A stretch of DNA of 38,299 bases from a virus. Every line of letters starts with the position of its first letter. The first letter of the stretch is position 1. The position numbers and the translations under genes were made by a program. The notes under the pieces are model-generated. The model had not been told where the DNA came from. It did not search any database and saw only the letters and a list, made by a program, of their open reading frames with translations. The stretch lies in IMG/VR virus record IMGVR_UViG_3300022690_000367; one strand, 5' to 3'. Below, one piece after another: positions 2,814 to 2,937 of this stretch.

Positions 2814-2937
2814 GAGAGGCTTCGTATCCGACATACAAACCAGCTCGATCGGTCTTAGCACTAAACACACTCGAAAAATGTGCTTAAAGCAAGTTGCTGG
2901 CCTTGTCCCATTCACAACCTCTCTAATGGGCCTAAGC
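2814..2937 (-). ncRNA. Unclassified structured RNA domain immediately 3' of the hammerhead cleavage site
   Basis: Locally GC-rich in an AT-rich genome. Hand-found helices, as plus-strand coordinate pairs: 2916..2923/2814..2821 (8 bp), 2896..2906/2835..2844 (10 bp with one bulge), an inner helix at about 2880..2887/2854..2861, and a hairpin at 2925..2930/2907..2912. Confidence 0.5.

Follow-up and report, generated by a model that had tools for sequence, protein, structure and literature searches.

A double-pseudoknot RNA joined to a hammerhead ribozyme in unrelated phages: a candidate for a new class of functional RNA

In known hammerhead ribozymes, stems I and II are capped by simple loops, bulges or a short loop-loop pseudoknot (PMC3088659). 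Bacterial self-cleaving ribozymes cluster in the neighborhoods of ParB-like, terminase and portal genes (PMC5737381, where the RNA named ROOL also appears; PMC10085705), and theta ribozymes, which are hepatitis delta virus (HDV)-like, occur in phages next to tRNAs (PMC10879173). The element described here lies in a 38,299-nucleotide (nt) stretch of viral DNA (IMG/VR record IMGVR_UViG_3300022690_000367; the window, below, means this whole stretch), and its upstream half is a type I hammerhead (Rfam RF00163), with the core, the three stems and the open stem I of that class. It differs from other type I hammerheads in that stem I continues through one G into a 118-nt domain, and in that one lineage is permuted through this domain. 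Conserved RNAs of about 120 nt that contain a pair of interlocked pseudoknots and at least a dozen invariant unpaired bases, which is what the domain proves to be, are rare, and historically they have been ribozymes or riboswitches. We regard the domain as a strong candidate for a functional RNA of a new class. Together with its hammerhead it makes up a cassette, fused base to base, that moves between unrelated phages and exists in permuted forms with and without the hammerhead, and it offers a concrete system for the old question of what purpose the many hammerheads of phage genomes serve.

A covarying double-pseudoknot fold

A preliminary description of the window had proposed that an unclassified structured RNA, at positions 2937 to 2814 of the minus strand, is attached to the 3' product of hammerhead cleavage. 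Comparison with homologues bears this out: the segment belongs to a family, its helices covary and no Rfam 15 model matches it. The limits given were exact, as 2937 is the first base of the cleavage product and 2814 the last base of the final supported helix strand (~125 nt). All window coordinates below refer to the minus strand unless marked otherwise, nucleotides of the RNA are numbered from the cleavage site, and a prime denotes the 3' strand of a helix.

The first homologue, L001, was found by an exact search with the hammerhead core in a G+C-rich and otherwise unrelated viral contig, where a sequence that forms the same helices with other bases comes after the hammerhead. Pattern scans anchored on the hammerhead plus GUG-N6-ACAAG were run on viral contigs and metagenomes, two further scans without the hammerhead requirement were run on IMG/VR only, and the candidates were filtered with a covariance model. 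The family comprises 26 distinct standard copies and two circularly permuted ones, on uncultured viral or metagenome contigs (at least 28 phages) whose source samples, to judge by their names, are marine, groundwater or otherwise environmental. The G+C content of the RNA segment ranges from 36 to 64% across the family and the flanking genes are unrelated; copies outside the training set of the model (L170, L195 and L203) score 92–117 bits. The window holds a single copy. Its closest relative, L146, matches it at 85% over 198 nt (window 3001..2805), with homology running from the stop codon of the upstream open reading frame (ORF) to 9 nt past P2'. The portable cassette of about 200 nt (2805..3001) thus consists of a leader of ~20 nt, the hammerhead, the domain and about 9 nt more.

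BLAST of the window cassette against 50,697 GenBank phage records gave no match, nor did BLAST of a consensus-like copy against GenBank phages and 5,426 E. coli genomes, and a scan of a bacterial genome collection with a narrow pattern returned three matches only, all of them chance matches inside coding regions. The proteins flanking the cassette in the window have no homology in any other RNA-bearing locus, and no phage closely matches the first 8 kb of the window. In one further locus (L216, 5439-5605, minus strand; 65 bits) the hammerhead and the 5' half of the domain are intact and the expected P4' and P2' strands are missing; this is probably a degenerate or recombined copy.

The fold was evaluated on a MAFFT alignment (n = 21) and on an alignment guided by the covariance model (n = 24). 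Overall, 96.0% of cells are paired, against 34–48% when the partners are slid by 1–3 columns, and 24 of the 31 pairs show compensatory changes on both sides; none of 500 shuffles reaches the observed values. The collected homologues support five helices. P1 (nt 8–13 with 26–31) is paired in 99.3% of cells and covaries at 5/6 pairs, P2 (nt 15–22 with 117–124) is paired in 100% and covaries at 6/8, P3 (nt 37–42 with 94–99) is paired in 91.5% with covariation at all four counted pairs, the hairpin P3a (nt 45–84) is paired in 90.5% with covariation at 5/8 basal pairs and in its distal pairs too, and P4 (nt 86–90 with 106–110) is paired in 97.5% and covaries at 4/5. P1 and P4 had been left out of the structure of the covariance model, so their covariation is no artefact of a model-fitted alignment. 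RNAalifold independently recovers P2, P3a and P4. A U.G pair in P2, conserved in 21 of 24 sequences, identifies the minus strand of the window as the functional strand.

The window sequence taken singly proves nothing, since the z-score of its minimum free energy (MFE) is −1.42 and 20 of 200 shuffles are equally stable; the proposition that its long helices exceed chance fails on the single sequence and is carried entirely by the comparative evidence. The local G+C enrichment that had been noted is real (0.46 in 2801-3000, against about 0.31–0.34 in the flanks). The statement that no ORF fits the segment needs amending, as an 82-amino-acid (aa) ORF with a TTG start (2808..3056) crosses it, but its frame is not conserved: an open sense frame of any kind is kept in 6 of 24 homologues and length differences are not multiples of 3, so that this ORF is not a gene. 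The substitutions are compensatory for pairing, and the translated small protein that had been raised as a counter-possibility is thereby set aside. The modest z-score and the mechanically called ORF are what could be said for reading the segment as chance helices in a G+C-rich patch, as an 82-aa coding gene or as a DNA-level signal. Set against this are the strand-specific G.U pairs, the retention of the fold in permuted copies and, above all, compensatory changes in five helices across 24 divergent sequences together with the non-conserved ORF, which refute this reading and leave it a vanishingly small probability. In the structural and family claims for the cassette our confidence is high.

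The domain, of ~118 nt, has its five helices in the strand order P1-P2-P1'-P3-(P3a)-P4-P3'-P4'-P2', which makes two interleaved H-type pseudoknots, the one formed by P3 and P4 sitting in the long loop of the one formed by P1 and P2. The cleavage product opens with a 5' tail (2931..2937) made up of GCUUAG, which is the 3' strand of hammerhead stem I, and the linker G7; the family consensus is NCNUAKG, with U4 invariant and C2, A5 and G7 each present in at least 22 of 24 sequences. P1 pairs CCCAUU (2925..2930) with AAUGGG (2907..2912), and its loop carries the 5' strand of P2, GAGAGGUU (2916..2923), which pairs with AGCCUCUC (2814..2821) at the end of the domain to form pseudoknot 1. These two helices, and the pseudoknot implied by a P1 loop that carries a P2 strand, had all been put forward in the preliminary description, and both helices covary. 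Each base of the GUG linker between the P2 5' strand and P1' (2913..2915) is present in 24 of 24 sequences, as is the unpaired junction ACAAG (nt 32–36, 2902..2906). P3 joins GCCAGC (2896..2901) to GCUGGU (2839..2844). The longer helix originally drawn here from ACAAG-G-CCAGC is right in its (G)CCAGC/GCUGG(U) part; its ACAAG/UUUGU extension is not, being paired in 42.9% of cells without covariation, with the A34-U149 pair forming only in the window and ACAAG invariantly unpaired.

P3a (2854..2893) is a long hairpin whose base is conserved (CUUrG...CnAAG) and whose tip varies, being a mere stub in L147, L148 and L172. An inner hairpin had been foreseen at this place, but the GCAC/GUGC register assigned to it is contradicted by the comparative and MFE models, in which C49 pairs with G79, G48 with C80, and G55–C58 with nt 70–73. 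P4, which was missed in the original scheme of nested long helices that the double pseudoknot now replaces, pairs CCGAU inside P3 (2848..2852) with GUCGG (2828..2832) to form pseudoknot 2. Among the unpaired bases GUG and ACAAG are invariant, and a C-A after P4, G(U/A)GGUAG, and A-U-A-C-G-A before P2' are invariant or nearly so. Of the latter junction, AUACGA (nt 111–116, 2822..2827; alignment columns 163–168), two A residues are invariant and the CG is absent in four members, L001, L173, L186 and L187, a "type B" minority whose last two junctions differ. A2813, the next base after P2', is conserved in 20 of 24 sequences.

The window copy is itself off consensus in the second pseudoknot. Its junction J3'/4' (2833..2838) reads UUGUAU where the family has a nearly invariant GUGGUA or GAGGUA, and it departs at all three of columns 155–157 (G, U, A), which are held in 22–23 of 24 sequences. 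Over 2833-2847 the window has UUUGUAUG for the CGUGGUAG of the family in J3'/4' and CGA for CAUG in the linker between P4 and P3'. L146, its closest relative, retains the consensus junctions. Activity of the window copy should not be assumed.

Other pairings were also considered. The invariant segments UUGU (nt 21–24) and ACAA (nt 32–35) are complementary, and a small hairpin might form between them to the exclusion of P1; three of its pairs appear in the RNAalifold prediction, and the invariance of both segments leaves covariation uninformative. A covariation scan found no partner for the 5' tail. Pairing of the tail with a P3a strand as a switch was provisionally rejected, since the complementarity, despite the likeness of stem I and the P3a base (CU.NG/CN.AG), is not kept across members. 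Base pairing of the 5' flank of the cassette with its 3' flank was rejected too, as it is inconsistent across loci.

The hammerhead and its genomic setting

The hammerhead of the window (type I, 2980..2932) lies in a 218-nt minus-strand gap between a 61-aa ORF (3186..3001) and an ORF with Cys repeats (2782..2288), and was identified with RF00163 and by direct reading of its core. This core is canonical, CUGAUGA...GAAA...GUC, with three stems of which stem I is open to the 5' and 3' ends. Stem I (6 bp) pairs CUAAGC (2980..2975) with GCUUAG (2937..2932); CUGAUGA (2974..2968) is followed by stem II (2967..2956; GUCC/GGAC with a GAAG loop), GAAA (2955..2952), stem III (2951..2940; CGCC/GGUG with a GAAA loop) and the GUC triplet (2940..2938). 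Self-cleavage is predicted from this core to take place after C2938, giving a 2',3'-cyclic phosphate and a 5'-OH, with the 3' product starting at 2937. The RF00163 score of 27.2 bits (E = 3e-4 in a 1-kb search) falls short of the gathering score of 34 owing to an insert in stem III that leaves the core unaffected, and homologous hammerheads in L188 (35.7) and L186 (34.6) reach it.

A hammerhead is carried by 27 of the 28 copies, L138 with its mismatched stem I among them, and the canonical core is present in 27/27, with one CUGACGA variant and with C or A as H17. Stem I has 6–7 contiguous pairs in 22 of these 27 copies and is itself constrained in sequence, following the NCNUAKG consensus, and in nearly all copies it is joined to P1 by a single-purine (1-nt) linker, G in the window. 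Stem II is constant at 4–5 bp. Its loops are mostly RNRG or UGAAU-like, and loop II varies in sequence and length with no covariation with the domain. L203 has, on the strand of its standard cassette, a second hammerhead, which is of type II and exceeds the gathering score (6146-6211, minus strand; 46.2 bits).

No promoter-like or terminator-like site was detected in 2300..3500, which places the cassette in the interior of an operon. The window belongs to a P22-like temperate phage; its terminase large subunit is 34–38% identical to proteins of Pseudomonas AH02, Vibrio PVA1, HK620 and Sf6, and it also encodes a gp3-type small terminase. A Lar-like restriction-alleviation gene (3196-3429; Pfam PF14354, E = 6e-10) stands two genes upstream of the cassette, and the sole tRNA of the window, a tRNA-Gln (UUG), is found at 13210-13285 on the plus strand. 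A 13-nt direct repeat brackets the cassette (TTCCTGTAAATTA at 2798-2810 and TTCCTGTCAATTA at 3047-3059, 12/13 identical), with one copy right after P2' and the other 46 nt within the upstream ORF. It may be due to chance, as by our estimate ~0.1–0.3 such pairs are expected, or it may be a recombination scar, and it does not match the edge of L146 homology at 3001.

The Cys-repeat protein encoded downstream (2288-2782; 164 aa) has an N-terminal run of Cys-x-x-Cys repeats, CWNCSGCYDCSDCSGCYDCYD, and a C-terminal part that matches PHROG 31265 (function unassigned in PHROG). The suggestion that the RNA is a leader controlling this gene in particular does not survive comparison. The RNA is absent from the examined loci that encode relatives of the gene, in which as much as 3 kb of upstream DNA was covered if the contig reached that far; an Rfam scan of eight such loci found no hammerhead, and the feature downstream of the RNA varies across the family, from portal, terminase large subunit, virion protein and ParB-like methyltransferase genes to small zinc-finger-like or unclassified ORFs and tRNA. 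In an all-against-all BLASTP of the ORFs within 6 kb at 29 loci, the only proteins shared were spurious ORFs overlapping the RNA and terminase small subunits in 3 loci.

A tRNA follows the domain directly in L189, and L151 lies inside an array of 13 tRNAs (ARAGORN). Next to the latter copy, 7 nt after the RNA, is a tRNA-like sequence (about 4392-4320, minus strand) with a GGAUGU...ACAUCCA acceptor, a normal D arm and a CUGAUAA anticodon loop; its T arm is atypical and ARAGORN does not call it. A start codon with a ribosome-binding site is usually found 14–81 nt downstream of the RNA, beyond an AU-rich spacer, as is expected for any intergenic element in compact phage genomes. Strictly defined canonical terminators are absent within 200 nt downstream in all 25 loci searched, and a terminator after the RNA, as in a stand-alone small RNA or a put-like antiterminator, was accordingly rejected; the hairpins that L001, L167 and L203 show on visual inspection are weak.

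Permuted copies and possible roles of the domain

The permuted copies show how hammerhead and domain belong together. In L159 (3889-3635, minus strand) a first half consisting of the P3a 3' strand-P4-P3'-P4'-P2' is joined by AAA to the hammerhead, which is followed by a second half consisting of tail-P1-P2-P1'-ACAAG-P3-P3a 5' strand. The two halves keep the complementarity of P2, P3 and P3a, the domain closes stem I, and after cleavage the product would be a two-piece RNA. The arrangement is not a chimera, as it is identical in L228, L229 and L230 and recurs in three independent assemblies. Right after the permuted 5' half (about 3655-3575, minus strand) lies an element of ~85 nt with a long closing stem, CACUACAUAGUG...CUAUGUAGUG, and a vaguely tRNA-like interior that draws no ARAGORN or Rfam call.

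The other permuted copy, found in L198 (about 850-1010, plus strand) and equally in L211 (about 1610-1770, plus strand), has the same permutation and no hammerhead. P2' is here joined through AU to the tail, and all four helices are perfectly paired with lineage-specific bases. On these contigs of 161–248 kb the element lies downstream of a tRNA-Lys, 6 nt away from it, and extends into the ribosome-binding site of the following ORF; in L198 the retained tail, UCAUAG, is complementary to UUAUGA over the start codon of that ORF, and the P3a 5' strand contains its Shine-Dalgarno sequence (AAGGA). A search for further permuted copies by way of neighboring proteins found relatives of the L198 phage without the RNA, and the gene beside the L159 cassette has no homologues beyond the identical contigs. 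The permuted variants indicate that hammerhead and domain form one structural unit and one portable cassette. The AU and AAA joints match the A(U/A)(U/A) conserved after P2' in standard copies, which argues that the two ends of the domain are near each other in space.

As to function, we tentatively favor a reading in which the domain is the payload of an autonomous, hammerhead-matured RNA, be it a leader or a stable RNA. According to this model, the hammerhead would cut the polycistronic transcript after C2938 during transcription, freeing an upstream message that ends in a 2',3'-cyclic phosphate and leaving a downstream RNA whose 5'-OH end coincides exactly with the start of the double-pseudoknot domain. 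The domain would be a self-contained folded RNA whose role is independent of the gene that follows, with the hammerhead acting as its host-independent 5'-end maturase. At one end tRNA processing may take over this role, at the 3' end in L189, where a tRNA comes after the domain, and at the 5' end in L198, where a tRNA comes before it. Cleavage by the hammerhead would be constitutive, because no hammerhead strand overlaps a helix of the domain. The variable downstream features and the homology ending at the edges of the cassette argue that the RNA is independent of neighboring genes, and since no phage protein co-occurs with it and its carriers differ widely in G+C content and hosts, its partner would have to be universal, or to be the RNA itself. 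Candidates for a universal partner are the ribosome, RNA polymerase, an RNase, or a common metabolite or ion.

Several considerations weigh against the payload reading, which rests on sequence comparison. The fixed 6-bp stem I, its conserved sequence, and ACAAG and G7 at the junction of stem I and P1 would fit equally well a domain that serves the hammerhead. A purely protective role does not explain an elaborate conserved fold, because a 5'-OH by itself lets an RNA escape 5'-end-dependent decay. The strength of the association between hammerhead and domain is inflated, because the metagenome search pattern required a hammerhead; the yield of the two IMG/VR scans without that requirement was three hammerhead-bearing copies, a copy degenerate at its 3' side and a single lineage lacking the hammerhead. 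The form without a hammerhead, known from one lineage, may be a relic in decay: L198 and L211 have ACAGG in place of the otherwise invariant ACAAG, and a closely related jumbo-phage contig, L223, has the tRNA without the RNA, which makes L198 and L211 suggestive but not conclusive for a function independent of the hammerhead. Finally, the window copy, off consensus in J3'/4' and in the linker between P4 and P3', may be impaired or partly decayed, or may be a tolerated variant.

Two other hypotheses, both live and of high interest, hold that the domain is an active partner of the hammerhead, either as a sensor that would make this the first natural allosteric hammerhead and would also gate translation in the permuted form, or as a new ribozyme class that co-excises a ~125-nt RNA, possibly circularized; taken together they are less likely than not. 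The cassette provides a testable candidate for a natural allosteric hammerhead or for a new catalytic RNA. In the allosteric case the domain would be an aptamer for a universal ligand or factor, whose folding state stabilizes or releases the short stem I and thereby gates self-cleavage, and gates translation where the hammerhead is lacking. The geometry is suitable, as the domain caps a stem I fixed at 6–7 pairs through a 1-nt linker, the hammerhead of L159 is embedded in the domain through a 3-nt linker, and, going by hammerhead structures, the invariant ACAAG and G7 at the junction of stem I, P1 and P3 would occupy the usual docking site of loop II. Many invariant unpaired bases are typical of ligand-binding RNAs, and the UUGU/ACAA complementarity could supply a P1-excluding hairpin. 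The hammerhead strands overlap no domain helix, however, so that there is no obvious exclusive pairing by which such a switch would operate. The segments that close the domain in L198 overlap the downstream Shine-Dalgarno sequence (AAGGA) and start codon (UUAUGA), as gating of translation would have it, but these are complementarities of 6 nt in a single lineage, noticed post hoc, with a chance probability that we estimate to be near 0.1. The downstream genes are incoherent in function and some copies precede tRNAs, which is unusual for a riboswitch, and no Rfam aptamer matches. Natural circular permutation, which is common in ribozymes and structural RNAs and rare in riboswitches, also counts against a sensor, and we regard this hypothesis as unlikely.

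In the other case the domain would itself be catalytic, cutting for example near its 3' end and so, together with the 5'-OH left by the hammerhead, releasing a discrete ~125-nt RNA that might be circularizable. In favor of this are the circularly permuted forms, which hammerhead and twister ribozymes also have. The setting is that of twister-sister, pistol and hatchet (hammerhead, ParB-like, terminase and portal genes in phage DNA), the compact double pseudoknot with its invariant junction bases recalls HDV-like and twister ribozymes, the AU and AAA joints bring the ends of the domain close in space, and L203 has another, type II, hammerhead on the same strand. Against this, no candidate cleavage site can be named, the four type B members have lost the C of ACGA, the only conserved C whose position resembles J4/2, simple transcript processing needs no second ribozyme right after a hammerhead, and many conserved motifs from the neighborhood of ribozymes failed to cleave in vitro. 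A new ribozyme class is for these reasons distinctly unlikely. The domain might, lastly, do nothing but stabilize or insulate a minimal hammerhead with a short stem I, so that cleavage proceeds whatever the surrounding sequence, as a natural counterpart of RiboJ. The fixed geometry of 6–7 stem I pairs, 1-nt linker and constant stem II of 4–5 bp, the closing of stem I by the domain in L159, the hammerhead in 27/28 copies and the portability of a cassette followed by AU-rich spacers and ribosome-binding sites would all be explained. Yet thousands of phage hammerheads manage with simple loop-loop contacts (PMC3088659), next to which a 118-nt domain with distant invariant bases appears excessive; loop II varies without covariation in the domain, and the L198 lineage retains four intact helices where there is no hammerhead to serve. 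A solely peripheral role thus seems very unlikely to us. The rest of the probability we assign to readings other than these and the payload reading.

Comparison with known RNAs

In Rfam 15 scans nothing besides Hammerhead_1 was found in window 2400..3400 (E ≤ 10), and at 14 homologous loci no model touches the domain (E ≤ 1). At these thresholds neither the window nor the 14 loci have a covariance-model match to twister, twister-sister, pistol, hatchet, hairpin or HDV ribozymes; for twister, pistol and hatchet this agrees with the preliminary description, which had matched the segment to none of the three. Riboswitch classes likewise yield no aptamer match, and the downstream genes form no coherent functional set. 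Neither ARAGORN nor Rfam calls a tRNA or tmRNA fold in the domain, the only tRNA of the window being the one at 13210-13285 (plus strand). A ToxI-like type III antitoxin RNA is a tandem array of short repeats beside an endoribonuclease toxin gene, whereas this element is a single copy with no tandem repeat in the window and no conserved neighbor protein. The literature searched, whose coverage is incomplete, describes no hammerhead with a domain of this kind fused to it. The domain therefore appears to be an RNA family and fold without known relative, where new is meant with respect to Rfam 15, GenBank phage records, E. coli genomes and searchable papers.

Some resemblances proved to be deceptive. 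The short strings GUGAAUGGGA, ACG-AAAGCC, GGAUAAAGCC and GUGGUA are shared with THF, c-di-GMP-I and preQ1-II riboswitches and hairpin and twister ribozymes; we regard them as coincidence, because they lie in covarying helices or come in another order and no covariance model matches. The drum motif was considered and rejected: its source paper places it before a terminator and with DUF3800-like genes, and it has no Rfam match here.

The closest likeness in topology is to HDV-like ribozymes. The domain order P1-P2-P1'-(hairpin domain)-P2' resembles the P1-P2-(P3)-P1'-P4-P2' of HDV, and just as HDV and CPEB3 ribozymes have a CGA(A)-like sequence in J4/2 before the P2 3' strand, so does the domain have CGA(A) at that place. 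The domain differs in having no P3/L3, with only GUG between P2 and P1' (24/24), and in carrying a second pseudoknot (P3/P4) at the position of HDV P4. HDV cleaves at the base of P1, whereas the domain has a conserved 7-nt tail ahead of P1, and the catalytic C of J4/2 is invariant in HDV, whereas the C of AUACGA is missing in 4 of 24 members (type B). Membership in the HDV-like class was rejected on account of the absent P3/L3, the C that is not invariant and the lack of a match to any HDV-family model, the similar topology notwithstanding. With twister-sister, pistol and hatchet the domain shares its setting (phage DNA with ParB-like, terminase and portal genes and other ribozymes nearby), a compact fold and invariant junction bases; it differs in having no match in sequence or structure, and in being fused directly to the hammerhead rather than merely near it.

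GOLLD, ROOL and species 1 and 2 of the T4 tRNA cluster are intricate phage RNAs of unassigned function that are often found in or near tRNA arrays and are co-processed with them, and L151, L189 and L198 share this tRNA setting. These RNAs are several times larger or unrelated in sequence, the GOLLD and ROOL models of Rfam do not match the domain, and we know of none of this type that is fused to a self-cleaving ribozyme. For the union of a sensing domain with a ribozyme, the allosteric group I ribozyme with a c-di-GMP-II riboswitch and the glmS ribozyme are precedents. To our knowledge no natural allosteric hammerhead has been described, and no ligand or competing pairing was found for the cassette.

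Counterparts of another kind are 5' elements made of plain hairpins, such as RiboJ (an engineered sTRSV hammerhead plus hairpin), the RNase III 5' stabilizer of phage SP82 and the ompA leader. Like these, the cassette may create a defined, structured 5' end that is followed by an unstructured spacer and ribosome-binding site and can precede any gene. It differs from them in that the structure is a 118-nt double pseudoknot with invariant unpaired bases, in that some copies stand in front of tRNAs, and in that a permuted form without the hammerhead exists. Even on the most conservative reading, that of a self-maturing structured 5' module, the cassette would give engineered ribozyme insulators a natural, portable counterpart.

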